In this document: positions 1-38,912 of the stretch, one piece after another
Position numbering within the stretch: position 1 is the stretch's first letter
Layout: every line of letters starts with the position of its first letter
Source of the DNA: a virus
Lineage: Duplodnaviria > Heunggongvirae > Uroviricota > Caudoviricetes
Reading direction: 5' to 3' (one strand)
IMG/VR virus record: IMGVR_UViG_2740892107_000002
DNA: 38,912 nt
The notes under the pieces: model-generated
Seen by the model: only the letters and a program-made list of their open reading frames with translations
The model's database searches: none
What the model was told of the DNA's origin: nothing
Made by a program: the position numbers and the translations under genes

Positions 1-1543
<1,543 letters not shown>

Positions 1544-1597: not shown

Positions 1598-1623
1598 GAG
1601 AGATAAACGTTGGTTTGGGGGAA
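1598..1623. other. gix/hix-like invertase crossover site 1 (approximate 26 bp)
   Basis: On the minus strand TTCCCCCAAACC-AA-CGTTTATCTCTC: 12-bp half sites around a 2-bp AA core, similar to hix/gix architecture; lies at the 5' edge of a fibre C-terminal cassette. Confidence 0.6.
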
Positions 1624-2043
1624 GGCTCGGCGCTGCCCGTTGGTGTACCTGTTCCGTGGCCCACTGCCACACCGCCAGCAGGCTGGTTAAAGTGCGACGG
1701 GCGCGCCTTTACAAAAGAACAATATCCTGTTCTGGCCAGAGTCTACCCGACCCTCCGTCTTCCCGATTTGCGCGGTGAGTTTATCCGTGGATGGGACGAC
1801 GGGCGAAAAGTGGATACAGGGCGCGATCTGCTTTCACGGCAGGATGGTACAAGTTTTTCTCATTACGCAGGTAATTTTGACATTGGGTCTGGTCATTCAA
1901 TCAATAACTATGACCAAATCCTTGACAACCAACCTGGATTCTCCCGTTTTTCATTTGCAGGTCCTTCGCGAGGCGATGGGGTTAATTATGTGACCATTCG
2001 TCCCCGTAACATTGCGTTTAATTACATCGTAAGGGCGGCATAG
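1615..2043 (+). CDS. alternative tail-fibre C-terminal cassette C (promoterless, silent orientation)
   Basis: Translation GEGSALPVGVPVPWPTATPPAGWLKCDGRAFTKEQYPVLARVYPTLRLPDLRGEFIRGWDDGRKVDTGR... and C-terminal RPRNIAFNYIVRAA parallel the C-terminus of the expressed fibre; frame is open from the crossover site; no own RBS or ATG expected. Confidence 0.7.
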   Translation: MGEGSALPVGVPVPWPTATPPAGWLKCDGRAFTKEQYPVLARVYPTLRLPDLRGEFIRGWDDGRKVDTGRDLLSRQDGTSFSHYAGNFDIGSGHSINNYDQILDNQPGFSRFSFAGPSRGDGVNYVTIRPRNIAFNYIVRAA

Positions 2044-2062
2044 AAACGTTGGTTTAGGAGAA
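2037..2062. other. gix/hix-like invertase crossover site 2 (approximate)
   Basis: On the minus strand TTCTCCTAAACC-AA-CGTTTCTATGCC; same orientation as site 1; sits between the two plus-strand cassettes. Confidence 0.6.
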
Positions 2063-2083
2063 GGCTCGGCGCTACCCGTTGGT

Positions 2084-2566
2084 GTGCCTGTTCCGTGGCC
2101 CACCGCCACACCGCCAGCAGGCTGGTTAAAGTGCGACGGGCGCGCCTTTACAAAAGAACAATATCCTGTTCTGGCCAGAGTCTACCCGACCCTCCGTCTT
2201 CCCGATTTACGCGGTGAGTTTATCCGTGGATGGGACGACGGGCGCAAAGTTGATACAGGACGTAAGTTGCTGTCCGCACAAGGGGCAACGCTGTTAAGAA
2301 CAGCAATGCTGGATTATTATAACCAGGACACTACGGGAACCTCGGGGATAGTCGGCATGGGATTCAACAATGAAGATTCCATTACAGACCTTCGTGAGGG
2401 CAGCTTTAAAATGCCGGACGGGACAACATTCAGCGATCCTGTCGTGGCAATGTCAGACAATGGTATGCAGGCTACTATTCTGACCTCTATCAGAAGCGGG
2501 TATGCGAAGGGTATCACTGTCAGACCCCGTAGCATTGCACTTAATTACATTGTGAGGGCAGTTTAA
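2084..2566 (+). CDS. alternative tail-fibre C-terminal cassette B (promoterless, silent orientation)
   Basis: Same conserved N-terminal segment (PVPWPTATPPAGWLKCDGRAFTKEQYPVLARVYPTLRLPDLRGEFIRGWDDGRKVDTGR), divergent middle, conserved end RPRSIALNYIVRAV; followed directly by a tail-fibre assembly gene. Confidence 0.7.
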   Translation: MPVPWPTATPPAGWLKCDGRAFTKEQYPVLARVYPTLRLPDLRGEFIRGWDDGRKVDTGRKLLSAQGATLLRTAMLDYYNQDTTGTSGIVGMGFNNEDSITDLREGSFKMPDGTTFSDPVVAMSDNGMQATILTSIRSGYAKGITVRPRSIALNYIVRAV

Positions 2567-3186: not shown

Positions 3187-4641
3187 TCACGCCGCCCTCA
3201 CGATATAGTTAAATGCGATATTGCGGGGGCGAGCTGATACATAAGCCCACCAGTCATATCTTTGTGCACCTTTAGAGGATGCATCAAATATCCACTTTTT
3301 GCCATTTAAGACCCCCAGTTGATTAGAGGTTAAAGCGTCACCAAATCCGTATTGTGTAGAGCCGAGCGAACTGATATCTCCGGTATCATTATCATCAAAA
3401 CCGGATACGATAGTCCCTTCCTGAAATGAAAGTAGCGCACGCCCGGTATCAACCTTGCGACCACCGTCCCATCCACGGATAAACTCACCGCGCAAATCGG
3501 GAAGACGGAGGGTCGGGTAGACTCTGGCCAGAACAGGATATTGTTCTTTGGTGAACGTAGCTCCGTTGCACTGTAACCAGCCTGCTGGCGGTGTGGCGGT
3601 GGGCCATGGAACCGGTACACCAACAGGCAATGCAGAGCCTTCCCCCAAACCAAGGTAATTGAGGACATCTTTTATACTGCCCTTAGCGATAATAGCGCGA
3701 CCAATAGCTGTAAGGGTTGCCAGCTCTGCGCGGTCTGCTCCGGTAAAATAAGGCAACCGATCTGCTGCAGTGGCAAGTCCTGCCAGAGCAGTGAGCGTGG
3801 CATCTGCCGGTTGTTTTCCGTTTGCCAGATCGTATGCAGCCTTGACCGCTTTCGGTGTGGCGGCCAGTATTTCAGACGTGCTGTTGATGGCACTGCTCAA
3901 TTGTACGGTGCCTTTTGCCGTCAGCGAGGCAGCAGGCACTCCCGTTATCTGACTCCACGGGTGAGTGTGGCTGACGGGCGCCTTGCCGGCTGCAAGGTCG
4001 TATGCAGCCTTGACGGCCTTTGGTGTGGCGGCCAGCGTTTCAGAGGTGCTGTTGGTGTCACTGCTCAATTGTACGGTGCCTTTTGCCGTCAGCGAGGCAG
4101 CAGGCACTCCCGTTATCTGACTCCACGGGTGAGTGTGGCTGACGGGCGCCTTGCCGGCTGCAAGGTCGTATGCAGCCTTGACCGCCTTCGGCGTGGCAGC
4201 CTCAGTTTCTGATTGACTGTCCGTGGCGCTGCTCAGTTGTACGGTGCCTTTTGCCGTCAGCGAGGCAGCAGGCACTCCCGTTATCTGACTCCACGGGTGA
4301 GTATGGCTGACGGGGGCCTTGCCGGCAGCCAGGTCATATGCAGCCTTGACGGCCTTTGGTGTGGCGGCCAGCGTTTCAGAGGTGCTGTTGGTGGCACTGC
4401 TCAGTTGGGTGAACCCCTTAGCTGTCAGTGTCGCGTCCGGGTGGTTACGGGAACGTACGTGTTCAGCCAGTGACTGTGCGGCTTCCTCCGTTTTTTTCTT
4501 CAGCCATTTCGTCCTGTTTGCCAGTTGCCGGGGGGCTCGATTTGATATCCCGTCTGCACCACCCAGAACCGGATCTGATGTCTCCAGTTGATAGATATTT
4601 TCTTCCCACTTTTCTGTTTCATTCAGGTTTCCCATAATCAA
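3187..4641 (-). CDS. tail fibre protein (Mu S-like), constant N-terminal part fused to currently expressed variable C-terminus A
   Basis: 484 aa; four tandem copies of a 56-aa repeat (LTAKGTVQLSSATNSTSETLAATPKAVKAAYDLAAGKAPVSHTHPWSQITGVPAAS), a motif recalled from enterobacterial side tail fibres; C-terminus shares the GEGSALPVGVPVPW...RPRNIAFNYIVRAA frame with the cassettes. Confidence 0.88.
   Translation of the reverse strand: MIMGNLNETEKWEENIYQLETSDPVLGGADGISNRAPRQLANRTKWLKKKTEEAAQSLAEHVRSRNHPDATLTAKGFTQLSSATNSTSETLAATPKAVKAAYDLAAGKAPVSHTHPWSQITGVPAASLTAKGTVQLSSATDSQSETEAATPKAVKAAYDLAAGKAPVSHTHPWSQITGVPAASLTAKGTVQLSSDTNSTSETLAATPKAVKAAYDLAAGKAPVSHTHPWSQITGVPAASLTAKGTVQLSSAINSTSEILAATPKAVKAAYDLANGKQPADATLTALAGLATAADRLPYFTGADRAELATLTAIGRAIIAKGSIKDVLNYLGLGEGSALPVGVPVPWPTATPPAGWLQCNGATFTKEQYPVLARVYPTLRLPDLRGEFIRGWDGGRKVDTGRALLSFQEGTIVSGFDDNDTGDISSLGSTQYGFGDALTSNQLGVLNGKKWIFDASSKGAQRYDWWAYVSARPRNIAFNYIVRAA
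3640..3665. other. gix/hix-like invertase crossover site 3 (approximate), inside the expressed tail-fibre gene, inverted relative to sites 1 and 2
   Basis: Plus strand TTCCCCCAAACC-AA-GGTAATTGAGGA; same left half site and AA core as sites 1 and 2; falls at the constant/variable junction of the fibre (..NYLGLGEGSALP..). Confidence 0.6.
3815..4428. repeat. tandem 168-bp repeats (about 3.6 copies) inside the tail-fibre gene
   Basis: Near-identical DNA blocks recur with a 168-bp period, encoding the 56-aa repeat; they generate spurious antisense ORFs (3811..4212, 4213..4473). Confidence 0.85.
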
Positions 4642-5216: not shown

Positions 5217-6312
5217 CAGACACTCCAGTCATGTTAAGAGTGATTGCCGTACAGTTTGCCCATTCGTTTTCTGCCACCACCCGCAGTGCCGGTGTCACCA
5301 GTTCAACCTGGTACACCCCGGAAACGGACAATGCACTGATAATCTGGCTGGGGACAATATCGCGCCCCAGCGTGGCGGCACGTGATGCCACCCAGTTCTG
5401 TATGGCGCTGTTAGCGGCATCTTTTACAGACCTGGCATCCTGATCACGATAGATCGTAATCTTGGCTTCAATGGTGTAATCCACCTTCACTGGTGTTTTA
5501 GCCCGCACTGTATCAGTGAGTGGCCTGACTTTCTCATCAGAGCAGAAACTCTCTACCAGCGTGAGAACACCGCCGTCCGGCAGACCGGTACTGAGCAGCG
5601 GATACAGATCTACGGTCCCGGGAACCGGGGAAAGCACAGCAACATCGACAATGTTGGGATGGGCCTGCATGGCATGAAAGCGGTATGCGCCACGGCTTCC
5701 GGCATTGGTGAATGACTCCGGGGCCAGCCTGATACGCTCCCGGAGCCTGTCATCGTCTTCCTGTTCTGAACCGCCGGAACTGGCCGTCAGATTGCTCACC
5801 AGCAGGTCGACGTTATCAATCTCATCGAGTAACTGACTGACCTGCGCAGGTTGCCAGCCGTTACCAGCGGTACCGGGTTCGGTACAGGTGGACGTGACAT
5901 TGACCAGCAGCAATCCGGCCTTCAGTACCACATCTGTATCGGTGGCAAAAATAACGCTGTCGGAAGCGCTGACGCGGGTGCCTGCCGGGATCAGCACATC
6001 AATGGCCAGTGCCTCATCTACGGAGAACTGGAGCGTGGTAGTGGCAGGCTGCGCGGCAAGACGGTATACACCGACCAGTTCACCGAGGTAATCAATCATC
6101 GGCTCACGGGCAAAGGCGACCAGATTCTGCTTTGCTGCCTCCTGTACCGCAACCCTGACCAGCATTTCGCGATAGGCCCACAGATCAATCAGCAGACGTT
6201 CTGCCTGTGCCGGGTACAGCGTTTTGCCGGTATCCGCTTCATACTTCGCAATCATTTCTGCCGTGATTTTGTCGGCATCGCGTTCAATAAAATCGGGTTC
6301 TGTCAGCGCCAT
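5209..6312 (-). CDS. baseplate protein J-like (Mu gp47 / P2 gpJ)
   Basis: 367 aa; conserved gene order W-J-I; family assignment from recalled similarity. Confidence 0.75.
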   Translation of the reverse strand: MALTEPDFIERDADKITAEMIAKYEADTGKTLYPAQAERLLIDLWAYREMLVRVAVQEAAKQNLVAFAREPMIDYLGELVGVYRLAAQPATTTLQFSVDEALAIDVLIPAGTRVSASDSVIFATDTDVVLKAGLLLVNVTSTCTEPGTAGNGWQPAQVSQLLDEIDNVDLLVSNLTASSGGSEQEDDDRLRERIRLAPESFTNAGSRGAYRFHAMQAHPNIVDVAVLSPVPGTVDLYPLLSTGLPDGGVLTLVESFCSDEKVRPLTDTVRAKTPVKVDYTIEAKITIYRDQDARSVKDAANSAIQNWVASRAATLGRDIVPSQIISALSVSGVYQVELVTPALRVVAENEWANCTAITLNMTGVSDD

Positions 6313-6650
6313 AGCAGCTCCTGAGTCCGGGTCTGTCCGTCTGAGCCTTTCCAGCTCACCCGGAGCGTAAGATGTTCGCCGTCGACGGCGGGTTTAACTG
6401 ACATAAGCTGGCAGCGGGGCTCCCAGCGCCGGATGGCATCGACGGATTCGCGCACCACATGCGGAATGGCCCGGTCTACAGGCCAGTCGATATAAAGATG
6501 CAGATTGCTGCCGAACTCCGGGCGATGCGGGTCGCTGCCGCGGGGAGTCCGCAGGATAATTTGAATCGCCTGCCGGATATCATCCAGCCCCCGGACAATT
6601 TCGCCGGGAGCCTGCAGGGTCGGTTGCCAGAATACTGAGGTTGTTTTCAT
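6303..6650 (-). CDS. baseplate protein W-like (gp25/GPW lysozyme-like fold; Mu gp46)
   Basis: 115 aa; position after spike V; motif ...DPHRPEFGSNLH... consistent with the GPW/gp25 family. Confidence 0.7.
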   Translation of the reverse strand: MKTTSVFWQPTLQAPGEIVRGLDDIRQAIQIILRTPRGSDPHRPEFGSNLHLYIDWPVDRAIPHVVRESVDAIRRWEPRCQLMSVKPAVDGEHLTLRVSWKGSDGQTRTQELLWR

Positions 6651-6704
6651 GGGGGCAGTATTGCCCCCGTGCGGGAACGCTGATATTAAAGGCGTTTAAA
6701 AAGC

Positions 6705-9536: not shown

Positions 9537-12226
9537 CAGCGGTACTCCTTACGTTGTTTCTGAGCCAGCAGACGCTCCAGCATTTTTTCCAGCTCATGCA
9601 GACTCATATTCAGGGCACCAGTCAGTCCTGCAGGCGCTGTGGTTTCCCTGCCATTGAGGAAAAACTGAGGATTAAAGCTGACCTGGATACCACCAGACGT
9701 TCCACCGCCGGTTGCAGCTGCACCACGGCCTGAATATCCGGCAGCCAGGATTTCAGGCGAGGGGATACGGGGAACATCCGGTGTCATCTCATTTGCCAGA
9801 CGTTGCCCTGGTAAAATCGATGCCCGGGTGGAGAGCGGAATAGCGGGCATGGAAGACAAACTATTGATTACGGCTCCGATCGCATTTTTAGCAGACGACA
9901 TAAACCCATTGATATCGGGCAACGGCATACTGAAGCGAACACCTGAAGTGTTATCCCGTATTTCTGGCCCCTGGATGCTCACGGGCATTCTGGGGAGCAG
10001 TTCACTGGCCATTCGCTGCCCGGCCAGAGCTGCAAGCGGAGTGGTCCGCTGCAGGCCAATGGCGGCCCCCTGCGCGATATTGTCACCAAAGCCCATAAAC
10101 ACGCGGCTCGGCGAATGAATGCCCAGCTTTTCGCTGAACCAGCCACTGATGCTGTCACCCATTCCGGTTACACTGGATTTGAGCGACTCCCATTTGTTTT
10201 TGATACCGTTAATCAGACCATCGACAAGATGGCCACCGAAGTCGGTAAACTTTGCCGGCAGATCAACACCAAGATATTTCAGCGCAGCTGCAAAGGCTTT
10301 ATAGAGCAGGCCTGCCGGCGACCAGTTAATCAGTAACTTACCAATTCCCACAATGCCGCCGTTAAAGGCTTCCTGAATGTCTGCCCAGCGCTGTTTAAAC
10401 CAGCCACTGACTGCCCCCCAGTTGCGGTAGATAAGGTAAGCTGCTGCCGCGACAGCGGTGATAACGAGACCGATGGGATTCATCATCAGCGCACGTCCAA
10501 TCCAGAGAACAGCACGTCCGGCGAGCATAATTCCGCGAACCAGCCCCCCGGAGAGCACGCCACTCAGTGTTCTGGCTCCTCTGGCGACGGCGCTAAATCC
10601 GGTCACCAGCCAGCGGAGCTTACCGCCTTGCCCCAGTGCGAGCGACAGACGAAGCCAGTTGGCCCGAAGTAAAACAGCATTTTTCCAGACACTTACAAAG
10701 GGGGAAATAAGGAGATTCAGCCCCAGTTTGAGACCAACAGTCGCTATCTTAATCGCAAGGAGCGCACTGATGAGCTTAAAAGCCCCACTGACAAATTGCG
10801 GGTGAGTCGCTACCCAGTGTTTTGCCCCCTGAATGAGTGGAAGCAGTTCCTGAGTCAAAGAAATAAAAGATGGAGCTAATTGATCGCCCAGCGTAATTGC
10901 CAGATCGCGACTGCTGACCATAAGTGTTTTAGTGGCTTCAAGGGGAGATTTCAGCCGCTGATCATAAGCACTGGCAAGCAAATCGTTATCCGCAGCCCTG
11001 AGAGCACCGGCACGGATCTCTCGATATCTGTCCATGTTGGCCAGCATCGGGCGGATAAATGCCATGACCTGCATATCCGCGAACATATCGCCCAGACCAA
11101 AGTTTTTCGCCAGAGCCTGAAGTGCCTCATCTCTTGCCGTATCATTCTTTATTTTCATGGCTGATTTGAAGCCGGCCAGCGCTTCGGGGCTTTTGGCATT
11201 GAGGTAACGTTCTATAACACTCAACATCCCTTCAATCGGAGAGATCCCCGCAGCTTTATAACTCGCAATAGATCCCTGCAAATCAATACCCAGATCAGCA
11301 AACTGTTTCTGAGTATCGCGGGCAAAAATTTTGGTAAGAAAGTTTTTAAAATTATTGGCTGCTTCGTCGGTGGAACCTGCACCGATTTTTGCTATCTGGA
11401 GACTGGCCCCGATTTCAGCAACAGCCTCTTTTCCACTGGCAATACCCGCCATCATTGGGGCCAGGGACTGCATCCACTTGACCTGATCCGGGATTTCAAA
11501 TGACCCCTGGTCACCGGCATAAGCCATAATATTCTGAACGGCACCAAAATCTCTGGCCGCACCTTTCAGGGAGTTTTGCCAGACTGCGGCCACTTTTGCC
11601 CAGTCCTGAGCAGACGTGCGTGTTGCCGTTGCCGCGCGGGCAATATCCGGCATCAGAAAACCGATATCTGACACATTATCAATATTGTCGCTGATGAGTG
11701 AACCCACCGCCTCCTGCAGCTCATCCTGATACTGATTGTATTTAAGCGCCCAGCCTTTTATCTGTCCGGCAAGTCCATCCCGCGTTTTATTGTCATATTT
11801 TGCGGTGATCGACATATCAATCATTTTGTCCTGAAAAGACATGGACTGCTGAACGGCAGGGGAAACCGTATGATAAACAGTCTGTGCCATGCCATACGCT
11901 TCAATCCCCTGACCATACAGCGCCATGCGGTTAGCTTTCAGCGCATCACTGGTAGCGGATGCCGCTGACAGACGGCGCTGCTGGCGCTCAATTTGCTCCA
12001 TGGTGCGGCTTACCCGCAGCAGCTCGCTGTTGAGATGCTGCATCCGGGAAGAACCCAGTTGACCATAACGTTCTGTTGCACGGGTTAAAGCGTTCTGACG
12101 TTCCTGCAGGCGGCGTGAGGTATCGCTCAGGGAATCAAGCGCACGGCGGGTACCGCTCATTGCAGAACGGAATGTGCTACCAATCATCCCGCCGATAACA
12201 ACGCCGACTGAAAACTGTCCCGACAT
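9536..12226 (-). CDS. tail tape measure protein
   Basis: 896 aa, helix-rich N-terminal third, hydrophobic central segments; located after the frameshifted chaperone. Confidence 0.88.
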   Translation of the reverse strand: MSGQFSVGVVIGGMIGSTFRSAMSGTRRALDSLSDTSRRLQERQNALTRATERYGQLGSSRMQHLNSELLRVSRTMEQIERQQRRLSAASATSDALKANRMALYGQGIEAYGMAQTVYHTVSPAVQQSMSFQDKMIDMSITAKYDNKTRDGLAGQIKGWALKYNQYQDELQEAVGSLISDNIDNVSDIGFLMPDIARAATATRTSAQDWAKVAAVWQNSLKGAARDFGAVQNIMAYAGDQGSFEIPDQVKWMQSLAPMMAGIASGKEAVAEIGASLQIAKIGAGSTDEAANNFKNFLTKIFARDTQKQFADLGIDLQGSIASYKAAGISPIEGMLSVIERYLNAKSPEALAGFKSAMKIKNDTARDEALQALAKNFGLGDMFADMQVMAFIRPMLANMDRYREIRAGALRAADNDLLASAYDQRLKSPLEATKTLMVSSRDLAITLGDQLAPSFISLTQELLPLIQGAKHWVATHPQFVSGAFKLISALLAIKIATVGLKLGLNLLISPFVSVWKNAVLLRANWLRLSLALGQGGKLRWLVTGFSAVARGARTLSGVLSGGLVRGIMLAGRAVLWIGRALMMNPIGLVITAVAAAAYLIYRNWGAVSGWFKQRWADIQEAFNGGIVGIGKLLINWSPAGLLYKAFAAALKYLGVDLPAKFTDFGGHLVDGLINGIKNKWESLKSSVTGMGDSISGWFSEKLGIHSPSRVFMGFGDNIAQGAAIGLQRTTPLAALAGQRMASELLPRMPVSIQGPEIRDNTSGVRFSMPLPDINGFMSSAKNAIGAVINSLSSMPAIPLSTRASILPGQRLANEMTPDVPRIPSPEILAAGYSGRGAAATGGGTSGGIQVSFNPQFFLNGRETTAPAGLTGALNMSLHELEKMLERLLAQKQRKEYR

Positions 12227-12301: not shown

Positions 12302-12719
12302 CTATGATTTGTCGCCGTACTCGCTTTTTATTTGCTCTTCAGCCTGCTCCAGCCACATCTCCAGATCGTCAGTATCGAGGGCATCAATCTCCCCCGGCTG
12401 AAACCGGAACCATCTCGCCAGCAGCCCCTGCGCCTGCGTCAGCGCCCTAGTTGCTCTCACCCATCCCCGTGATGAGCTGAAATCGTTTCTGTAACTGCAG
12501 GTAATCAGCCAGATCCATATTGTCGAGATCTTCCGGGAGAAGACCAGTACTGCGGGCAATCAGCGGTTCGTCCCAGTCTGCCGGGTTTTTGCTGATTTTG
12601 CGCACCTGCTTCAGGTCTTTTACCGTCAGGCGTTTCAGTTCAACCTGCTCAATTCTGGTGCCTGCAGCAGTGGTGAAGGGATAAGACAATTTAAAAGTAT
12701 CGGATGGGGTCTGTGACAT
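12302..12719 (-). CDS. tail assembly chaperone, frameshift-extended form (programmed +1/-2 frameshift)
   Basis: ORF 12302..12559 (+1 frame) overlaps the 3' end of 12447..12719; candidate shift sites ACG GGG ATG GGT or AAC TAG G at the short-form stop; conserved arrangement upstream of tape measure genes. Confidence 0.6.
12447..12719 (-). CDS. tail assembly chaperone, short form (Mu gp41-like)
   Basis: 90 aa ORF directly upstream of the tape measure; overlapped at its 3' end by a second ORF in the +1 frame. Confidence 0.75.
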   Translation of the reverse strand: MSQTPSDTFKLSYPFTTAAGTRIEQVELKRLTVKDLKQVRKISKNPADWDEPLIARSTGLLPEDLDNMDLADYLQLQKRFQLITGMGESN

Positions 12720-12794
12720 GATTGTGCTCCTGTGTAAGTTCAGGGCAGTATGTCGGGAGAAGCGCGTGACGGATATTAAAGGAGATTAAGAAGA

Positions 12795-12810
12795 AGGGGC
12801 CGGAGCCCCT
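12795..12810 (-). terminator. GC hairpin (GGGGC-loop-GCCCC) followed by T-rich tract on the late strand
   Basis: Minus strand AGGGGCTCCGGCCCCT then TCTTCTTAATCT; could act as an attenuator within the tail operon. Confidence 0.3.
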
Positions 12811-17518: not shown

Positions 17519-18634
17519 TTACAGGCAGCGTGCGACAGCAGCCTCATAGCTGATGCCTTCTTTTTTGGACAGGGCCACTGCTTTCTGATGCAGGGCCAGA
17601 CGCTCAGGATCGGCTTCCGCAAACTCTGCCACATCCACCTTCACCGTGTCGCCGACACGCTCTTTTGTGGCCTGTTCGGCGAAATTCATCACCGGCTCCC
17701 CGTCGGAGAGCAATGAACGAAAGGCGGTGGCCAGCGGTGTGCGGCTTTCCCCCTCAGCAAACTCCACCGGCTTGTCGCCACCGGCGACGGCATCCAGCAG
17801 GGCAACCACCACGGAGGAGGCGCGGGGAGCCAGACGGCCCTCTGCGACCAGTTTTTCTGCAAAGGCCACATTGTCCTTATGCAGTTGCTCCTGTCTGACC
17901 TGTGCATCACGCGCATCGCGATCAGCAGCCTGCTGCTTCAGGCGGCGGTTCTCCTCCTGAAGGGCTTCAATCTCTTCTTTTGTCATCGATGATTCCTCGT
18001 TACTTGCGGAAGACGGCACCTGGCCTGTCTCACTGAATTGCGCACCTGCTGCATCCTGCGACGGTGTGTCGCGGTACGCCTCTTCGCGCAGATTGTTGAG
18101 CTGCCATTCCGGCAGGACTTTTTCTGCTTCGTCCAGACTGAAGCGGGCGATCAGAAAATCGCGCAGCTTTCCCCACAGGGAGGCATTCGTGATGGCCTGC
18201 CAGTCGGCGAACTCCACCACACCTTCTTCCTGCTCACTGAAGGACACCTGTTTCAGCCCCTTGACGGAAGGTGGCTGTGCCCCGAGAAAGCCCACATGGC
18301 GCAGGTAGAGCACGCCGGGCTTCGGATTGGACGGTGAATCCGGGAGGTAGAAAGAGGCGGACACTTTTTTGAATCGTCCGTCGGTGACCATCTCAGCAAA
18401 CTGCGGGTCCAGCTGGGCAGGCTCTGCCATCAGATCGACGCCGCTGAGCGACAGGGCTTTCACCCAGCCCCACGCCGGGTCTTCCGTTCTGGGATGACCA
18501 ATCACGAGTGGTGCTTCATGGACGGACGGGTCATAGGCTTTCACGCAGGCGGCAAGATCGTCTGGCGTGAACGGCAGTTTTTTGCCGTGCATATCGGTAT
18601 GAGTACCGGCTTTAAAAATGTGAATGGCTGACAT
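17519..18634 (-). CDS. head maturation protease / scaffold (Mu I-like)
   Basis: 371 aa; N-terminal domain plus Glu/Ala/Gln-rich coiled-coil C-terminal half typical of Mu I/Z. Confidence 0.75.
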   Translation of the reverse strand: MSAIHIFKAGTHTDMHGKKLPFTPDDLAACVKAYDPSVHEAPLVIGHPRTEDPAWGWVKALSLSGVDLMAEPAQLDPQFAEMVTDGRFKKVSASFYLPDSPSNPKPGVLYLRHVGFLGAQPPSVKGLKQVSFSEQEEGVVEFADWQAITNASLWGKLRDFLIARFSLDEAEKVLPEWQLNNLREEAYRDTPSQDAAGAQFSETGQVPSSASNEESSMTKEEIEALQEENRRLKQQAADRDARDAQVRQEQLHKDNVAFAEKLVAEGRLAPRASSVVVALLDAVAGGDKPVEFAEGESRTPLATAFRSLLSDGEPVMNFAEQATKERVGDTVKVDVAEFAEADPERLALHQKAVALSKKEGISYEAAVARCL

Positions 18635-18652: not shown

Positions 18653-18708
18653 GTTGTCGGAGACAGTTTGTGAGAAATGCAGGCCCGGCGATTTTAATCT
18701 GCTTTAGA
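18653..18708 (-). promoter_or_regulatory. candidate late promoter (PI-like): TAAAAT -10 with conserved downstream CTGTCTCC box
   Basis: 213-bp gap upstream of the protease gene; minus-strand TTAAAATCG-N-CTGTCTCC with the same 24-nt spacing as the element upstream of the lysis operon. Confidence 0.5.
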
Positions 18709-18848
18709 AAACATCAGGGGAGAAGGACAGGGAAAGCAATACGGTGAACCGGAGGCGGTTATAAAACAGAGGCTGTAAAGCCTTTATAAAGGTAATACAG
18801 CCCCTCATTCGCTGGCAATGATAAATCACCCGCCTGAAGAGAGAAAAC

Positions 18849-19307
18849 TCAGCGACGGGCCGCTGATTCAAGATGGCGGACAATGGTATCGAGGATGGGG
18901 ATTACCACTTCAGGCTGTAGTTCTCCATCCCCCGTCACCGGCAGGAACGGGCGGGCCGGAAGTTCAACAGACTCATTACGCCCCGTTTTACCCCCGAACT
19001 GGTGAATGGCACCGTAAACAACGTTGGTCCCCACAACAGCCTGCCGGTCGTCATGGTCGGTTGATACTGACCCCATCAGACGCCCGGTATCCTGCAGTGT
19101 CTGCCCGTCACGCTCTTCCGCTGCCAGCGAGGGCATCCACCCCGGACGCCCCTCATCAAGAAAGTTAAACTGTGTTTCCGCCAGCAGGGTTCCGGCAATT
19201 TTGCGCATCGCGGGCTCCAGGTCTGTGGCAGCAAGATCCAGCGCACGGAGGCTCCGGCGCAGGGATTTATCGTTAATGGTGATACTGACCAGGTTATCGG
19301 AAGCCAT
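18849..19307 (-). CDS. virion morphogenesis protein (Mu G-like)
   Basis: 152 aa, position after the F-like gene. Confidence 0.65.
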   Translation of the reverse strand: MASDNLVSITINDKSLRRSLRALDLAATDLEPAMRKIAGTLLAETQFNFLDEGRPGWMPSLAAEERDGQTLQDTGRLMGSVSTDHDDRQAVVGTNVVYGAIHQFGGKTGRNESVELPARPFLPVTGDGELQPEVVIPILDTIVRHLESAARR

Positions 19308-25755: not shown

Positions 25756-26106
25756 TTAAAGCCCCATCGCAACAGCCAGGCAGACCGCTGCAACAATCAG
25801 TGCACGGCGGATTAACGCAGCAGAAAACACCAGGTGAAGGCCGGTCTGTACCGGGAAACGCCCTTCAGCCATCAGCCTGTCGTCATGTTTCAGGTACTGA
25901 CCGGGACGGGCTTTGGGGAAGAGCGAACGGTCAAGCCAGTAACCCAGCACTGCTGCCAGCGTGATGAGTGCCAGCTTGTAGATCACAACAGGCAGCTGCT
26001 GTGGTGAGACCAGAGCGATGGTGCCCAGCAACAGCACTGAGGTCAGCAGCCAGCCGCTGAGGCGAGGTTTTTTAACAGGGGGAATGAATTTTTTCAGTTT
26101 TTTCAT
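25756..26106 (-). CDS. holin-like membrane protein
   Basis: MKKLKKF... with several predicted TM segments; AAGGAG 6 nt upstream of ATG 26106; first gene of the lysis cassette. Confidence 0.6.
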   Translation of the reverse strand: MKKLKKFIPPVKKPRLSGWLLTSVLLLGTIALVSPQQLPVVIYKLALITLAAVLGYWLDRSLFPKARPGQYLKHDDRLMAEGRFPVQTGLHLVFSAALIRRALIVAAVCLAVAMGL

Positions 26107-26119
26107 GTGTGTCTCCTTA

Positions 26120-26175
26120 TCTGGTGGAGACAGCATCACAAATACAGGGCGCGAAGGATTTTAAAGCGCGTTAAG
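26120..26175 (-). promoter_or_regulatory. candidate late promoter (Plys-like): TAAAAT -10 with conserved downstream CTGTCTCC box
   Basis: Minus-strand TTTAAAATCC-N-CTGTCTCC-N7-AAGGAG-ATG; same architecture and spacing as the element at 18653..18708; poor -35 suggests activator dependence. Confidence 0.5.
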
Positions 26176-26236
26176 AGAGCCGGGGATACGGGATGTGCAG
26201 GATAAACGATGAATTATTCACAGAGGAGAATACGAT

Positions 26237-26965
26237 ATGACGCAGACACTGAATCCGGTCATCACTGTCACCGTGTCCGGTCCTGTGGGCAGCGGTAAAA
26301 GTTACGTACTGGCGCGAATAGAGGAAGTGGTGAAACAGGAATTCGGAAACAGCGTCATTGTCGACGCCGCAGACGTGGACGGTGAGCGCCGTATGAGTGG
26401 GGATGATCTGAGCACATGGCAGAAACCACGGGCTGGCACAGTGATCAGGCTGGAGGAATACACGGGACAGGGCCTGTTGTCATACGGCGAGGAGCGTATC
26501 TGTCGGACGAATGAGCTGCTGGATGTTATATGCCCCACGGGCCGGCAACCCTGGATACTGCCCGATGCACTGCATGCCACCATTGCGGCACTGATGACAG
26601 TTTACGATCAGGAGCTGCTCATGAAGGAGTTACGTAAACTCACTGGTCAGTCAACAGAATGTTGTTCGTCCCCGAAGTACGGCAAACAGGAACACATCCC
26701 GATTAACCAGCCTCCCCGGTTCTTCGACGAATACCTTCTGACACCGGAAAATAAAGCTGAGCATGAAGAGATCAAAGCGGCGTTGTTCCGGGAAATCAGG
26801 AAGATTGCTGAAATGCAACTGGAGGGCGGGCTGGACAGAGTGATGGCGAGAGGAGAATGGGCATCGCTGTTTGAAAGAGTTTCCCCGGAATTACTTCCCC
26901 TCGCACTGGCTATCGGGATTATGCAGACAGCGGATAAACCTCACTTACGTTCATTAAACACGTAA
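26237..26965 (+). CDS. hypothetical protein with N-terminal P-loop (Walker A-like GPVGSGKS) motif; accessory gene
   Basis: 242 aa; ATG with GAGGAG upstream; opposite orientation to the flanking late genes; no family recognised. Confidence 0.6.
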   Translation: MTQTLNPVITVTVSGPVGSGKSYVLARIEEVVKQEFGNSVIVDAADVDGERRMSGDDLSTWQKPRAGTVIRLEEYTGQGLLSYGEERICRTNELLDVICPTGRQPWILPDALHATIAALMTVYDQELLMKELRKLTGQSTECCSSPKYGKQEHIPINQPPRFFDEYLLTPENKAEHEEIKAALFREIRKIAEMQLEGGLDRVMARGEWASLFERVSPELLPLALAIGIMQTADKPHLRSLNT

Positions 26966-27345
26966 CGCATAATCCGGGATACGCATTCAGCGATGACTGC
27001 ATTTTCACCGGTTTTTACTGCATCCAGAAGTGACTCTTTAAATGGTACGGGCCGGGGCTGCAGAAAGGTCGGCATGGCATTGAGCAGACAGAGCGTTTTT
27101 TCCGTGAGGACGACATCAGCCGCTCCCACAGCCAGCAACTGAGAGTAACGAATATAGCTGTTATCCCGAAGCCATATCAGCGTATCAATAAAACACCGGC
27201 ACTTTTTCTGGTCGTGATCAACCTGGTCCGGGATATCGAAAAAACCAGAATAAATCAAAACCTGAGGTGCCGGATGCGTGTTCAGTAATCGGCAGAATAT
27301 TTTGCCGGTGAGTACATAAAAATCATCATTTAAGGAGTGCATCAT
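26941..27345 (-). CDS. hypothetical protein (accessory, lower GC)
   Basis: 134 aa; ATG 27345 overlaps the divergent 71-aa ORF start by 2 nt; 3' end overlaps the P-loop gene convergently. Confidence 0.4.
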   Translation of the reverse strand: MMHSLNDDFYVLTGKIFCRLLNTHPAPQVLIYSGFFDIPDQVDHDQKKCRCFIDTLIWLRDNSYIRYSQLLAVGAADVVLTEKTLCLLNAMPTFLQPRPVPFKESLLDAVKTGENAVIAECVSRIMRYVFNERK

Positions 27346-27559
27346 GAATCCCCGATTAACGTTAACAGAACATCAGCGCCGTGCTGAAGCAGTGAACAAT
27401 GTTCTGGAAGATATTATCCGGTTATACCGCGGAGAACTGAGTGTCTGTCGTGCCGCTTTTCATTTTCAGGGAATACAAAAGCAGTTTGATACTTCTGTTT
27501 TTGCAGAAGGTATTACTTATGCCCTGGACCGGATAAGGTCAGAAAATCGCCCCGGATAA
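27344..27559 (+). CDS. hypothetical small protein (accessory)
   Basis: 71 aa; strong AAGGAG RBS 7 nt upstream of the ATG. Confidence 0.45.
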   Translation: MNPRLTLTEHQRRAEAVNNVLEDIIRLYRGELSVCRAAFHFQGIQKQFDTSVFAEGITYALDRIRSENRPG

Positions 27560-27615
27560 TCCCTAAACCACATTAACAGAAATCCCGCCATCCCTGCCGC
27601 ATCATGAAAGAACGA

Positions 27616-27643
27616 CCAGCCCGGCACCCGAAAGCCGGGCTGG
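27616..27643. other. 10-bp perfect GC-rich hairpin (CCAGCCCGGC-loop-GCCGGGCTGG) in an intergenic gap
   Basis: Inverted repeat between the 71-aa ORF and the methylase gene; possible terminator or RNA element. Confidence 0.3.
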
Positions 27644-27749
27644 TCATCGCCCCACAGGAATGCGCTGTGAGCCGACCAAGGTTCAGTCAGTCTCGCGAGA
27701 CCTGACCAGACTGCCATATTTTTTAATAATTGTAAAAGGCTTGCAGATT

Positions 27750-28514
27750 ATGAAAATGCAGACATTACCCATCGTGCCGTGGATTGGTGGCAAACGCCGC
27801 CTTGCAAAACACATTCTGCCGCTGTTTCCGGCGCATGAATGTTATGTGGAGCCGTTTTGTGGGGCAGCAGCGCTCTATTTTCTTAAGACACCCGGCAAGA
27901 TCGAAGTCATCAATGATATCAACGGTGAACTGGTGAATCTGTACCGGGTGGTAAAGCATCACCTGGAAGAATTTGTCCGCCAGTTCAAATGGGCGCTGGT
28001 CAGCCGTCAGATCTACAAATGGCTGCAGATCACCCCGGAAGAAACACTGACGGATATCCAGCGTGCGGCACGGTTCTACTACCTTCAGAAGCAGGCGTTT
28101 GGCGGCAAGGTGGCAGAGCACAGCTTCGGTACCTCCACCACATCCCCGCCACGCTTCAACCTGCTACGTATTGAAGAAGAACTGTCAGCGGCACACCTGC
28201 GGCTTTCCAGAACAGTCATAGAACACATGGACTGGCAACAGTGCATTGAGCGTTATGATCGTCCGCACACGCTGTTCTACTGCGACCCACCGTACCTGGG
28301 TACGGAAGGCTATGGTGTGGATTTTCCTGAAGGGAACTACTCGCGGCTGGCAGAGCTGGCCCGGTGCATCAGAGGAAAAATGATAATTTCGGTGAACGAC
28401 ATCCCGCAGATGCGCGAGGTGTTCACTGGACTGAACATACAGACAGTGAATATCAACTACAGTCTGGCGGGTAAACCCACGCCGCGCCGTGAACTGCTAA
28501 TCTGCAACTTCTGA
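27750..28514 (+). CDS. DNA N6-adenine methyltransferase (Dam family), orphan
   Basis: EPFCGAAALYF (motif I-like) and CDPPYLG (DPPY catalytic motif); ATG 27750 chosen over the upstream extension; no adjacent restriction endonuclease candidate. Confidence 0.8.
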   Translation: MKMQTLPIVPWIGGKRRLAKHILPLFPAHECYVEPFCGAAALYFLKTPGKIEVINDINGELVNLYRVVKHHLEEFVRQFKWALVSRQIYKWLQITPEETLTDIQRAARFYYLQKQAFGGKVAEHSFGTSTTSPPRFNLLRIEEELSAAHLRLSRTVIEHMDWQQCIERYDRPHTLFYCDPPYLGTEGYGVDFPEGNYSRLAELARCIRGKMIISVNDIPQMREVFTGLNIQTVNINYSLAGKPTPRRELLICNF

Positions 28515-28520
28515 AACAAA

Positions 28521-28545
28521 ACCGGAAAGCACAATGCTTTCCGGT
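28521..28545 (-). terminator. rho-independent terminator (11-bp stem) downstream of the repressor gene, possibly bidirectional
   Basis: ACCGGAAAGCA-CAA-TGCTTTCCGGT; on the minus strand it is followed by TTTGTTT; lies between the convergent Dam-like and repressor genes. Confidence 0.6.
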
Positions 28546-28630: not shown

Positions 28631-28987
28631 TCAGCCTGCGATTTTTCCTGGTTTTGGCTGAGTATAGAATCGCCCAATCTCAAGAAATGAGCGTTGTTGG
28701 TCTGGTGTCATGTCGTCAAAAGTATCTATTAGTTTTTGTTTTTCTGGGGAAATTTGATTCTGGTTTCTAGTCATACCATCTGTGCTCATTCCAGTGAGCA
28801 ACCAATTTACATCAACATTAAACTCTTGATGCATCTTTAACAGAAACTCCCCTCCAGGCATCGCCTTTCCATTTTCAATCTGACTGATACCACCATTAGA
28901 AATACCTAAACGAGCTGCAAATTCTCTCTGGTTCAACCCTGCTTTCTTCCTCACAGAAATAACGCGCTCTCCTATATCTTTGCTCAT
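28631..28987 (-). CDS. prophage repressor (XRE-family HTH, Mu c analogue)
   Basis: N-terminal HTH (LNQREFAARLGISNGGISQIENGK); divergent from the early operon; low-GC gene; operator half-site overlaps its start codon. Confidence 0.75.
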   Translation of the reverse strand: MSKDIGERVISVRKKAGLNQREFAARLGISNGGISQIENGKAMPGGEFLLKMHQEFNVDVNWLLTGMSTDGMTRNQNQISPEKQKLIDTFDDMTPDQQRSFLEIGRFYTQPKPGKIAG

Positions 28988-30561: not shown

Positions 30562-30878
30562 TGAATACGAATAACACACAAAATACCCTGATGGACAGCC
30601 CGGAGGCACTGGGGCACGCACTGTGTAATCTGCTGCCGGAGATGGTGCAGGGTTTCCGCGTGGTGACCCCTTCCGGTGAAATCTGCGTACCCGCACAGGA
30701 GACGCACCCGTTTGTACTGACGATGGAGGTGATGCTGATGCAGCAGATAAGACGTCTGCAGAATCAGTCAGCATTACGCCCGGTAGTTGCACCGCAACCG
30801 GTAAATACCGTGGTGAAAACCTGCGATGGCGAAACACTGTGCGACCTCGCCAGAAAAATTGCCGCCAGAATCGGATAA
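30561..30878 (+). CDS. hypothetical protein
   Basis: 105 aa, GGAGG RBS, start overlaps the upstream stop. Confidence 0.5.
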   Translation: MNTNNTQNTLMDSPEALGHALCNLLPEMVQGFRVVTPSGEICVPAQETHPFVLTMEVMLMQQIRRLQNQSALRPVVAPQPVNTVVKTCDGETLCDLARKIAARIG

Positions 30879-34767: not shown

Positions 34768-34962
34768 ATGATATTTAAATGTATTCAGTGCGAGAGGGAT
34801 ATAACAGCCCTGCGTTTTCACAGCGCCATCGCCGTGATGTCCGGTAAATACCACATCCCTGCGGTACGCGTCACCCTGGTCTGCCCGTACTGCAGCCAGC
34901 ATTTTTCGGCAGACGTGCCCGTCATGGAATTCTCCCGCCCTGACAGGGAGGACTCGCAATGA
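34768..34962 (+). CDS. small zinc-ribbon protein (CxxC...CxxC)
   Basis: 64 aa with CIQC and CPYC pairs; AGGAGA RBS. Confidence 0.5.
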   Translation: MIFKCIQCERDITALRFHSAIAVMSGKYHIPAVRVTLVCPYCSQHFSADVPVMEFSRPDREDSQ

Positions 34963-36871: not shown

Positions 36872-37321
36872 ATGCAGAAAAAACGCCTGATACAGCTTAT
36901 CCATATTGCCCGTAATGAACTGGGTATGGATGAAGACACCTACCGCCAGATGTTACAGGGGCTGACCGGTAAAGCCTCAACCAAAGGAATGGATACCACA
37001 CAACTAAACTGCGTGCTGGAATCCATGAAAAAGAAAGGCTTTCGCGTTAAACCAGCCAGAAAAGCCAGCTCCGGTTTACCGCTGGATAACCATCCGCAGT
37101 CCAGGAAAATTCGTGCGCTATGGCTTGAAATGGCTGCTGCCGGCATTGTTCGTGACCGTTCAGAAAATGCATTAGCGAGGTGGATCAAGCGGGAAACGGG
37201 CATCAGCGCCCTGCGCTGGCTCAGTACTGAACAGGCAAGCAGTGTTATTGAGAAACTGAAGAAGTGGCAGCGCAGAGCTGCGGGAGTCAAACATGAGCGA
37301 CCTGAATCAGTTTCGAAGTAA
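36872..37321 (+). CDS. GemA-like protein (Mu gp16 family)
   Basis: 149 aa; N-terminal KKRLIQLIHIARNELGMDEDTYRQMLQ pattern; positioned directly before mor as in Mu. Confidence 0.65.
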   Translation: MQKKRLIQLIHIARNELGMDEDTYRQMLQGLTGKASTKGMDTTQLNCVLESMKKKGFRVKPARKASSGLPLDNHPQSRKIRALWLEMAAAGIVRDRSENALARWIKRETGISALRWLSTEQASSVIEKLKKWQRRAAGVKHERPESVSK

Positions 37322-37682
37322 GGGGCCGGAACTCCTGGTGGAACTGGCACAGCATACCTCTGAGACCGTTCGCGAGATTATTGATATTGAGCCCGAAGTT
37401 GCCGACCAGATTGGTCAGGCCGTCGCGAACCGAATGATGCAGGTCTGGGGCGGGCAAAACGTTTATTTCCCGATGGGCATGGTATGGAAGGTCAGTCAGC
37501 GCGACCGGGAAATCTTCAGGGAGTTTAACGGACGCAACCACCACGAACTGGCCCGCAAATTTGGTGTTTCGCTTCAGTGGGTCTACAGCGTGGTTAAGCG
37601 GGTAAGAAAAGAAGAACTGGATCGGATGCAGGGCAAGCTATTTGCTGATGAACCCGATGCAGATACGGAGAAAAAAGAGTAA
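37293..37682 (+). CDS. Mor/C-family transcriptional activator
   Basis: 129 aa; C-terminal HTH region (FNGRNHHELARKFGVSLQWVYSVVKRVRK) resembles Mu Mor; last gene of the early operon. Confidence 0.8.
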   Translation: MSDLNQFRSKGPELLVELAQHTSETVREIIDIEPEVADQIGQAVANRMMQVWGGQNVYFPMGMVWKVSQRDREIFREFNGRNHHELARKFGVSLQWVYSVVKRVRKEELDRMQGKLFADEPDADTEKKE

Positions 37683-37925: not shown

Positions 37926-38912
37926 TCAGACAGTGCGTTTCGCTTTTTGCTTGTAACGGTCGAAGATCACCGCTGCCAGCAGGATTAAGCCGCGAACCAC
38001 GTACTGCGCGAAAGGAGAAATATTAAGCAGGTTCATGGCGTTCTCCACGGTGCCTAAAATTAAGATACCCGCCACCACATATGAGATTTTTCCGATGCCG
38101 CCTTTCAGAGAAACGCCACCTAAAACGCAGGCGGAGATCACAATCAGCTCATAACCAATCGACGTCATTGGCTGCCCACTGGTCATACGTGAAGCCAGAA
38201 TAATTCCGGCTATCGCTGATACCAGGCCAGAGAGAACAAAGATAATAATTTTGGTGCGAACAACCGGTACACCCGCCAGACGCGCAGCCTCTTCGTTCCC
38301 GCCAATCGCCAGGGTATTACGACCAAAGGTGGTTTTATTCAGCAGCAAGCCAAAGATGATCAAACACGCGACGGTGAGCCAGATTGGCGCAGGCAGACCG
38401 AACCAGTTGGCGTAACCAAGGGCAAAGAAGCTTTCATCTTCGATACCGACCGCTTTACCGTCTGAAATGATGTACGCCAGACCTCGAACAATCTGCATCG
38501 TTGCCAGTGTCGTGATCAGGGCATTTATTTTGAGTTTGGCGATAACAAAGCCATTGACCAGACCACAGAGAATGCCCAGCAGCAACCCCGCTGCCACGCC
38601 AATCCACAGGCTTTCAGTCAGATTAATAACCACCGCCGTGGTGACACCCGCACAGGCAATTACGGAGGCGACAGAAAGGTCAAAGTCACCGGAAGCAAGG
38701 CAGAACAACATGCCACAAGCCACCATCCCCGACATGGAAATTGCCAGGCCCAACCCTTTCATATTAATGAAGGTGGCAAAATTTGGGACAAAAATGGCAC
38801 AGGCGATAAAAAGCACCGCAAACACCACCAGCATGCCGTACTGATCCCAGATACGCCCGAAGCTGAATGACGACTTAGGTGCGCCAGAACCCGATGTAGA
38901 AACAGAAGACAT
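37926..38912 (-). CDS. araH: L-arabinose ABC transporter permease
   Basis: 328 aa, full length, matches AraH as recalled; multi-TM permease; ATG at 38912. Confidence 0.93.
   Translation of the reverse strand: MSSVSTSGSGAPKSSFSFGRIWDQYGMLVVFAVLFIACAIFVPNFATFINMKGLGLAISMSGMVACGMLFCLASGDFDLSVASVIACAGVTTAVVINLTESLWIGVAAGLLLGILCGLVNGFVIAKLKINALITTLATMQIVRGLAYIISDGKAVGIEDESFFALGYANWFGLPAPIWLTVACLIIFGLLLNKTTFGRNTLAIGGNEEAARLAGVPVVRTKIIIFVLSGLVSAIAGIILASRMTSGQPMTSIGYELIVISACVLGGVSLKGGIGKISYVVAGILILGTVENAMNLLNISPFAQYVVRGLILLAAVIFDRYKQKAKRTV

Follow-up and report, generated by a model that had tools for sequence, protein, structure and literature searches.

In bacteriophage Mu the late promoters possess a -10 hexamer and lack typical -35 hexamers, and the activator C binds a 16-bp imperfect dyad, which is centred at -43.5 and overlaps the -35 region (PMC2582627). 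The Mor dyad in the promoter Pm is centred at the same position (PMC4287176; also the cryo-electron microscopy preprint bioRxiv 10.1101/2025.05.02.651988). Here we compare with these systems a set of sequence elements located upstream of the late genes in a stretch of 38,912 nt (IMG/VR record IMGVR_UViG_2740892107_000002, in the following called the window), which contains a complete transposable prophage of about 37 kb from E. coli between two neighbouring host genes. The original prediction for this DNA described a TAAAAT hexamer, followed after 24 nt by the box CTGTCTCC, upstream of the holin gene on the minus strand, as well as a second copy with identical spacing at 18653..18708, and it likened both to the Mu promoters Plys and PI. 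It is quite probable that these elements belong to one Mu-like Mor/C-type promoter design, which occurs in four minus-strand copies and probably in a fifth one on the plus strand.

Direct reading of the coordinates confirmed both copies. At site 1 the TAAAAT is found at 26163..26158 and CTGTCTCC at 26133..26126 of the minus strand with 24 nt between them (minus-strand sequence CTCTTAACGCGCTTTAAAATCCTTCGCGCCCTGTATTTGTGATGCTGTCTCCACCAGATAAGGAGACACACATG), and the ATG of the holin gene follows at 26106. The holin belongs to the Pfam family PF13272 (E = 1e-41). At site 2, which precedes the gene of a Mu I-like head-maturation protease (ATG at 18634), the two elements are located at 18696..18691 and 18666..18659, again 24 nt apart (minus-strand sequence TTTCTAAAGCAGATTAAAATCGCCGGGCCTGCATTTCTCACAAACTGTCTCCGACAACATAACGCGGGACAGCAAAATG). 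The composite TAAAAT-N24-CTGTCTCC has exactly two matches in the window, both on the minus strand, even if up to two mismatches are allowed. Shuffled sequences contain 0.17 matches on average, and two matches were reached in 1 of 100 shuffles. CTGTCTCC alone is also present only at these two sites and is by itself not unusual (27/100 shuffles).

The two-copy description is real, but incomplete, as it missed two further copies and a probable divergent partner promoter at site 1. By reading the remaining gaps between the late genes, two variants with the same spacing were identified on the minus strand, TAATAT-N24-CTGCCCTG at 12778..12741 (site 3) and TAATAT-N24-CTGCCCCC at 6688..6651 (site 4). 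Site 3 has the layout TTAATCTCCTTTAATATCC-...-GACATACTGCCCTG with a dyad at 12789..12776 and is located ahead of a tail-chaperone-type gene, and site 4 has the layout TTAAACGCCTTTAATATCA-...-GCAATACTGCCCCC-ATG with a dyad at 6699..6686 and is located ahead of a gpW-like baseplate gene. The conserved upstream block is broader than the hexamer and reads TTAA-N6-TTAAWATC; the full motif across the four sites is TTAA-N6-TTAA(W)AT, 20 nt, nAnnCT-G-pyrimidines. The features of the four sites are as follows.

26161..26174, read on the minus strand and shared by both directions: dyad of site 1, TTAACGCGCTTTAA, proposed activator site at about -42.5 of the leftward promoter
26158..26163, minus strand: TAAAAT of site 1, right half-site TTAA plus flanking bases, probably not a -10
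26132..26137, minus strand: proposed -10 of site 1, GATGCT, of the lysis/head promoter, 23 nt after the dyad
26126..26133, minus strand: box of site 1, CTGTCTCC, last two bases of the putative -10 plus discriminator, -8 to -1
26107..26125, minus strand: holin mRNA leader of 19 nt, predicted from the geometry
25756..26106, minus strand: holin gene
18694..18707, minus strand: dyad of site 2, CTAAAGCAGATTAA, second-best score (20.8) of a weight matrix derived from site 1
18659..18670, minus strand: putative -10 of site 2, CAAACT (18670..18665), overlapping the box (18666..18659)
17519..18634, minus strand: protease gene, with predicted +1 at G18658 and a 24-nt leader to the ATG at 18634
12776..12789, minus strand: dyad of site 3, TTAATCTCCTTTAA, with a terminator-like hairpin and T-run (12809..12788) immediately before it
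12741..12752, minus strand: putative -10 of site 3, CATACT (12752..12747), followed by GCCCTG
12447..12719, minus strand: tail-chaperone-type gene, with predicted +1 at A12740 and a 21-nt leader to the ATG at 12719
6686..6699, minus strand: dyad of site 4, TTAAACGCCTTTAA
6648..6662, minus strand: putative -10 of site 4, AATACT (6662..6657), then GCCCCC and ATG (6650..6648) of the gpW-like baseplate wedge gene (6303..6650)

The pattern YTAA-N6-TTAAWAT-N21-ANNCTG matches four times in the window, always on the minus strand and each time just upstream of the first gene of a late block, and it is absent from 100 shuffles. This pattern was composed after the sites had already been seen; therefore a weight matrix was also built from homologues of site 1 only. 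Its four top positions in the window are sites 1 to 4 (60.6, 20.8, 11.6 and 8.7), and the best score in 20 shuffles is 3.1. Applied to the genome of phage BcepMu, the same matrix places its three top positions upstream of the I-like, W-like and holin genes. Matches of the upstream block at 1383..1408 were rejected as promoters. They are located inside the coding sequence of a Gin-like invertase, are also found in Mu gin and thus reflect coding conservation.

The four copies head the lysis/packaging/head, the protease/capsid, the tail-chaperone/tape-measure and the baseplate/fibre operons. As in promoters of the Mor/C type, several copies are found at the start of late transcription units (holin, I-like protease, tail-chaperone and gpW-like genes), a -10 is recognisable without a usable -35 (GATGCT, CAAACT, CATACT and AATACT), and a Mor/C-family gene is located within the same element. 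Site 1 has the position of Mu Plys ahead of the lysis genes, and site 2, flanked by the G-like gene and the I-like protease gene, has that of Mu PI. In a scan for consensus sigma-70 promoters no -35/-10 pair was found at either of these two sites; a missing -35 match is to be expected of activator-dependent promoters. The likeness to Plys and PI holds for the site positions, the lack of a -35 and the Mor-family gene. The way in which the parts had been assigned is not supported.

That assignment was examined by comparing the geometry with the four annotated, S1-mapped late promoters of Mu. The distance from the half-site ATAA to the -10 hexamer (TAGACT, CAAACT, TATCCT, TAAGAT) is 24 nt in all four of them, and in Pmom the dyad TTAT-N6-ATAA has its centre 31.5 bp before the hexamer, corresponding to -43.5. 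The position of the hexamer is read in this way because the -35 of Pmom (ACCACA) is separated from its -10 by 19 bp (PMC2582627). At all four sites of the window the centre of TTAA-N6-TTAA is found 30.5 bp before GATGCT, CAAACT, CATACT or AATACT, which would put the dyad at -42.5 if the predicted start falls 7 nt past the hexamer. At each site the proposed hexamer overlaps the first two letters of the box. Therefore the box would cover -8 to -1, and the identical spacing noticed originally would be the distance from the activator site to the -10. The box had been taken for a conserved downstream element at about +18, which does not agree with this geometry. TAAAAT is probably not the -10 hexamer either, as its last T, which would be the critical T at -7, is replaced by G in relatives. 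The predicted leaders measure 19, 24, 21 and 0 nt at sites 1 to 4. At site 1 a TG (26140..26139) precedes GATGCT, as in extended -10 elements, and the predicted +1, A26125, is the first purine past the pyrimidine run; a purine is conserved here among the homologues.

Both the binder of the dyad and the start positions are inferred by analogy with Mu. Most likely the dyad is the binding site of a single Mor/C-family activator and TAAAAT contains its right half-site. In the mechanism we propose, the Mor/C-family protein would be produced at the end of the early operon and would bind the dyad centred near -42.5, overlapping the -35 position. The bound activator would let the host RNA polymerase open a weak sigma-70 -10, nA(T/A)(G/A)CT, and transcription would begin at the purine directly past the box (A26125, G18658, A12740 and A6650). 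The order of the design would be an imperfect TTAA-N6-TTAA, W-A-T/G-C, 23 nt in total which are little constrained, the -10, a G with a pyrimidine run, and the first purine.

The candidate activator and the borders of the prophage are listed here.

37293..37682, plus strand: Mor/C-family gene (PF08765, E = 1.3e-43), proposed activator of all these promoters
1..858 and 37926..38912: host flanks, trehalose-phosphatase (otsB-like) and sugar-ABC permease (araH-like)

Since host genes are present on both sides, the whole prophage is contained in the window. The early genes on the plus strand encode an rve transposase, a MuB-like ATPase, Gam and GemA, with a single Mor-family gene as the last one. 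The late genes on the minus strand encode the holin, an SLT lysin, a Mu gp27-like protein, the terminase, a Mu-type portal, Mu F-like and Mu G-like proteins, the Mu I-like head-maturation protease, and tail, baseplate and fibre proteins. The Mor-like protein is 54% identical to BcepMu gp01, which assigns the prophage to the BcepMu-type phages, and 30-32% identical to Mu Mor and C. No second Mor/C homologue was found in the window; a Mor-to-C cascade is thus apparently absent. The closest phages are Escherichia phage PhiKM (99.5%) as well as Phi06_2974 B and Klebsiella phage KP12 (about 85%).

A motif search in related Mu-like prophages had been proposed beforehand as a check, and both elements were found in the relatives at the exact distance. 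We collected about 47 distinct holin-upstream sequences from IMG/VR prophages with holin identities between 66% and 100%. They retain both elements at exactly 24 nt from each other, and about 18 nt in between have diverged almost completely. In this set the upstream block reads (A)CT(A/C)TTAA(C/A)GCnnTTTAAAA(T/G)CC and the downstream block (C/G/A)A(T/A)(G/A/T)CTG(T)C(T)CC-purine. Site 2 is conserved likewise among the homologues of the protease gene, and sites 3 and 4 are each retained among their respective homologues. Within the upstream block TTAA-N6-TTAA is the part that does not vary. In 34 distinct site-1 homologues TAA..G....TTTAAAA is at least 95% conserved, and the same degree of conservation (at least 95%) is seen for a G at -14 of the site-1 family. 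The second and sixth letters of the proposed hexamer (A2 and T6) show no variation in 31 distinct sequences of site 1, in the homologues of sites 2 to 4, in BcepMu and in the 40 variants of the baseplate-gene site described below. A G takes the place of the last T of TAAAAT in each of the 8 distinct diverged homologues of site 2 (TAAAAG), in several relatives of site 1 (TAAAAG, TAAAGG) and in the holin and I-like sites of BcepMu. We found the site-1 region in 632 of 5,426 complete E. coli genomes.

An independent view of the spacing is provided by site 4. Its ATG is located exactly 6 nt past the hexamer and there is no Shine-Dalgarno sequence. The W-like gene of BcepMu has the same layout in other letters (CAACAT-GGCCGC-ATG; the BcepMu regions compared were 30800..30825 and 18830..18865). 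We extracted the W-gene region from 73 bacterial genomes, which yielded 40 distinct upstream variants from Erwinia, Photorhabdus, Pectobacterium, Lonsdalea, Burkholderia, Pseudomonas, Salmonella and others. The dyad-to-hexamer distance is 23 nt in 37 of the 40, and the hexamer-to-ATG distance is 6 nt in 31 and 7 nt in 9; the combinations are (23,6) in 28, (23,7) in 9, (22,6) in 2 and (24,6) in one variant. These sharp peaks are informative because the search had allowed a wider range, 21-25 nt for the first and 5-8 nt for the second distance. The spacer between hexamer and ATG is unconstrained (GCCCCC, GTTCCCC, GACCGT, GAGCAC, TGCCGC, GGGCGC, GAGGTC and others) and contains no Shine-Dalgarno sequence. 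As the ATG is held at the expected +1 in the absence of a ribosome-binding site, a leaderless gpW-like mRNA is implied, and we predict that the gpW-like baseplate gene is translated from such an mRNA with A6650 of its ATG as +1. This layout would be hard to explain if the -10 were TAATAT or TAAAAG, 31 nt upstream. In BcepMu the annotated ATG of the I-like gene gp32 is located inside the predicted -10, and a third ATG is found 7 nt after it, which aligns with the protein start of the protease encoded in the window. The start of gp32 is probably misannotated, and this gene looks leaderless as well.

TTAA-N6-TTAA reads alike on both strands, and site 1 is the only site with a divergent neighbour. 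Two features on the plus strand belong to this side.

26198..26203, plus strand: mirror -10-like hexamer CAGGAT, 23 nt from the site-1 dyad on its other side
26237..28514, plus strand: genes beginning with that of an unknown protein and including a Dam-like methyltransferase (27660..28514, PF02086)

Of 45 distinct site-1 homologues, 38 have the mirror hexamer CA(G/T)NAT (CAKNAT) at 23 or 24 nt, whatever lies between. Probably one dyad at site 1 serves two divergent late promoters, of which the rightward one would be the fifth of the set. The Dam-like methyltransferase in the proposed rightward unit recalls the late, C-dependent mom operon of Mu, and the bidirectional promoter may place this DNA methyltransferase operon under late control as well. 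Upstream of the holin promoter of Klebsiella phage KP12 (11480..12450) a plus-strand open reading frame from about 11638 (MTEPKQTGL...) overlaps the annotated minus-strand coding sequence KP12_281. The annotated strand of KP12_281 may be wrong, and the gene actually encoded here might be the holin promoter's divergent partner.

Several points weigh against the proposed assignment. The -10 hexamers are weak with 3-4 matches out of 6, and TAAAAT and TAATAT taken alone match TATAAT better than they do. The centre of the dyad is 1 bp nearer to the hexamer than in Mu. The -10 assignment is supported by analogy and conservation, and neither a mapped start nor a footprint nor activator dependence was found in the literature for this phage or for BcepMu-type phages. 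The elements themselves, with their number, placement, conservation and invariant spacing, and the single Mor-family gene are directly visible in the DNA.

The box is also complementary to the region where translation of the first gene begins. At site 1 TGTCTCC pairs with GGAGACA, the Shine-Dalgarno sequence of the holin gene (26116..26110), and forms an inverted repeat. At site 2 CTGTCTC pairs with GGGACAG, at site 3 TGCCCTG pairs with CAGG(A)GCA, and at site 4 an upstream GGGGGCA is the partner of TGCCCCC, which brings the hairpin directly up to the AUG. When the promoter region is part of the RNA, the folding energy is -12.1 to -15.8 kcal/mol (z = -2.1 to -3.8) and both the Shine-Dalgarno sequence and the AUG are paired, and RNAs which start at the predicted +1 are essentially unstructured in the same folding analysis. 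The mean unpaired probability of the initiation region in the long versus the short RNA is 0.22/0.91 at site 1, 0.20/0.46 at site 2 and 0.33/0.60 at site 3. For 19 diverged site-1 homologues the values are 0.29 (long) and 0.66 (short), and for 20 internal late genes used as controls 0.51 and 0.58. The long RNA of the BcepMu holin gene folds at -28.4 kcal/mol (z = -5.4) and the short one at -5.1. From phage Mu the regions of PI and Plys (18004..18070 and 10430..10494) were folded, and the PI RNA has z = -3.4 in its long and +0.6 in its short form.

The end of the Mu PI -10 together with its discriminator (CTGACTGCTCA) is a complement of the ribosome-binding region in front of gene I. To our knowledge this complementarity has no earlier description.

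From these predictions a translational role of the box may be inferred. Read-through or spurious RNA begun upstream would fold over the Shine-Dalgarno sequence and the start codon and block initiation, and RNA begun at the activator-dependent start would lack the upstream arm and stay open for translation. Transcripts entering from upstream would thus be poorly translated for the first gene and activator-initiated ones would be open, which is less certain than the promoter assignment. In its general form we put forward this idea only tentatively and consider it possible at somewhat less than even chances: in Mu-type late promoters (here, in BcepMu and in Mu PI) the untranscribed -10/discriminator would double as an arm against the ribosome-binding site and thereby act as a promoter-coupled translational insulator. 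Upstream transcripts would be silent for holin, protease and chaperone, activator-initiated ones, including the leaderless baseplate mRNA, would be translated, and a single palindromic site would fire two divergent late promoters.

A number of findings argue against this role of the box. Covariation of the site-1 hairpin is not significant, with 84.9% of the cells paired for the 31 distinct sequences in comparison to 85.4% in shuffles; therefore no covariation support is claimed for the hairpin. Only a single double change is found in the alignment, the C-to-U changes opposite G do no more than allow for pairing, and the arms are largely constrained otherwise, by the Shine-Dalgarno sequence and by the -10/discriminator. 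Site 4 and Lonsdalea show a different pairing pattern or none, and the Mu Plys RNA is not significant (z = -1.0), with a 9-bp helix that involves the start-codon region of lys. A discriminator that is rich in G+C or in pyrimidines could alone keep basal opening low and fix the start point.

At the baseplate-gene site the helix register of the hairpin shifts between clades. No match to Rfam 15 at the gathering threshold was found anywhere in the window. A protein operator formed by the arms of the inverted repeats was rejected, since arm sequences, loop lengths and register differ among the four sites and among genera.

The alternative that survives best is the one underlying the original prediction, namely that TAAAAT or TAATAT is the -10 and transcription starts about 7 nt later, so that CTGTCTCC at about +18 in a leader of 45-50 nt pairs with the Shine-Dalgarno sequence and limits or times translation, an effect which a factor might lift as in Mu com/mom. 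TAAAAT and TAATAT indeed match TATAAT at 4-5 of 6 positions, leader hairpins would be present and stable in such RNAs, and most substitutions in the 5' arm turn a C opposite G into U, by which RNA pairing is kept. However, the T at -7 would be a G in many homologues and in BcepMu, and the dyad would be centred at -16.5, a position which is repressor-like rather than activator-like. Neither the invariant nAnnnT-N6/7-ATG without Shine-Dalgarno sequence at the W gene across genera nor the mirror hexamer at site 1 would be accounted for. Such a start would furthermore cut the outer helix of the BcepMu holin structure, and the mapped late leaders of Mu are short. A Com-like translational activator which opens the hairpins was considered as the factor, but no homologue of Mu Com was found in the window. 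We regard this explanation as improbable.

A 64-aa open reading frame in the early region (34768..34962, plus strand) has a weak zinc-finger-like Pfam match (Sgf11, E = 9e-4, below the family cut-off). It resembles Mu Com in size and shows no detectable similarity to it.

Less probable still, with only a small chance, is that the promoters are as we propose and TTAA-N6-TTAA is the operator of another protein, for example a late-gene repressor, the prophage repressor or a nucleoid protein of the host such as IHF or Fis. The assignment of the dyad to the activator rests on sequence, the blocks are AT-rich at a spacing of one turn, and Mu Pmom is additionally under host-factor control (PMC3378877). 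Against another binder, the position, the dyad form, the size of 14-16 bp, the lack of a -35, and the number and placement of the sites all fit the Mor/C paradigm, and the motif accompanies BcepMu-type prophages that encode Mor, in enterics as well as in Burkholderia and Pseudomonas. An UP element or IHF site in particular is unlikely, as the upstream block has a dyad form and a G+C-rich centre with conserved letters. That the similarity of the sites is due to chance or shared intergenic ancestry without regulatory function is very unlikely: although CTGTCTCC alone is not rarer than expected and close relatives share 85-100% overall identity, the spacing and the key letters persist across hosts as far apart as E. 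coli and Pseudomonas while the spacer drifts nearly at random, the weight matrix and its shuffles single out the sites, and all four of them precede the first genes of late blocks.

If the box indeed acts as an insulator, it would keep the lysis and morphogenesis genes silent in lysogens, where the silenced transcripts would stem from terminator leakage, from transcription outside the prophage and from read-through of the middle operon. Between the holin promoter and the minus-strand gene 26941..27345 we detected no terminator, and transcripts could therefore conceivably run on into the lysis genes. As in Mu, terminator-like hairpins with T-runs are located directly upstream of site 3 (12788..12809, minus strand) and of site 2 (18760..18804, minus strand), and the stem of the one at site 3 shows covariation among relatives. 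A strong terminator with an 11-bp stem (28521..28545, minus strand) follows a repressor-like helix-turn-helix gene (28631..28987).

A Gin/Hin-type serine invertase (971..1543, minus strand, PF00239 and PF02796) adjoins the tail-fibre genes. Inverted repeats of 229-244 nt are present (1607..1850 and 2046..2274 versus 3413..3656, 86% complementary), and two alternative fibre C-termini with Collar domains are encoded on the plus strand. The segment 971..3656 is an invertible host-range segment with more than one cassette.

Prophages of this type are common, and relatives are found in many Enterobacterales, in Burkholderia and in Pseudomonas. For their late operons TTAA-N6-TTAA-N23-nAnnnT can serve as an annotation rule. 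From the motif follow a predicted recognition sequence for this Mor/C branch and corrections of start codons, as for BcepMu gp32. Testable predictions are the four start sites, the leaderless baseplate gene and the bidirectional promoter. If promoter position is indeed coupled to translatability, this would be a safety device for lysis genes, which appears to extend to Mu.

In comparison to known systems the proposed insulator resembles the Tn10/IS10 transposase gene and B. subtilis sigG, in which sequence upstream of the gene's own start also pairs with the ribosome-binding region. For sigG, transcripts from outside are untranslated and those from its own promoter are unable to form the hairpin (PMC5942855), and the same block of read-through transcripts only is described for Tn10 (Davis, Simons and Kleckner 1985). 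Here such pairing is a prediction for sites 1-3, Mu PI and the BcepMu holin gene. In contrast to Tn10/IS10 and sigG, the upstream arm would be the -10/discriminator of an activator-dependent promoter and the layout recurs at several promoters of one phage, as a prediction without covariation support.

BcepMu shares with the prophage the genome layout as well as the holin, SLT lysin, I-like, chaperone and gpW-like genes. The same dyad-N23-hexamer is found there upstream of gp21 (holin), gp32 (I-like), gp41 and gp49 (W-like), whereas the sequences after the hexamer differ and a CTGTCTCC box is absent. In the searchable literature, which does not cover the original BcepMu paper, no published description of BcepMu-type late promoters was found.

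Like the design predicted here, the Mor/C promoters of Mu use the host sigma-70 with a weak, recognisable -10 and no -35, and their imperfect dyad, in which 6 bp separate two tetranucleotides, is centred about 43 bp upstream, where it overlaps the -35 position. Four copies head the lysis block, the head block (past the G-type gene and a terminator and before the I-type protease) and the tail/baseplate blocks, the leaders are short, and the Mor/C-family gene is placed after gemA. The Mu PI -10, CAAACT, is identical to that proposed for site 2 and located at the same distance, and TAGACT-G of Mu Plys compares with CATACT-G and AATACT-G of the window. In contrast to Mu, the half-sites here are TTAA/TTAA instead of TTAT/ATAA for C and G+C-rich arms in Pm, the centre of the dyad is 1 bp closer to the -10, there is a single Mor/C-family gene, and the late genes run divergently from the early genes. 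Site 1 is apparently bidirectional, and one mRNA is predicted to be leaderless. We regard the sites as the late-promoter set of a BcepMu-type prophage, which most likely operates in the manner of the Mu Mor/C type with a half-site sequence of its own and a single activator.

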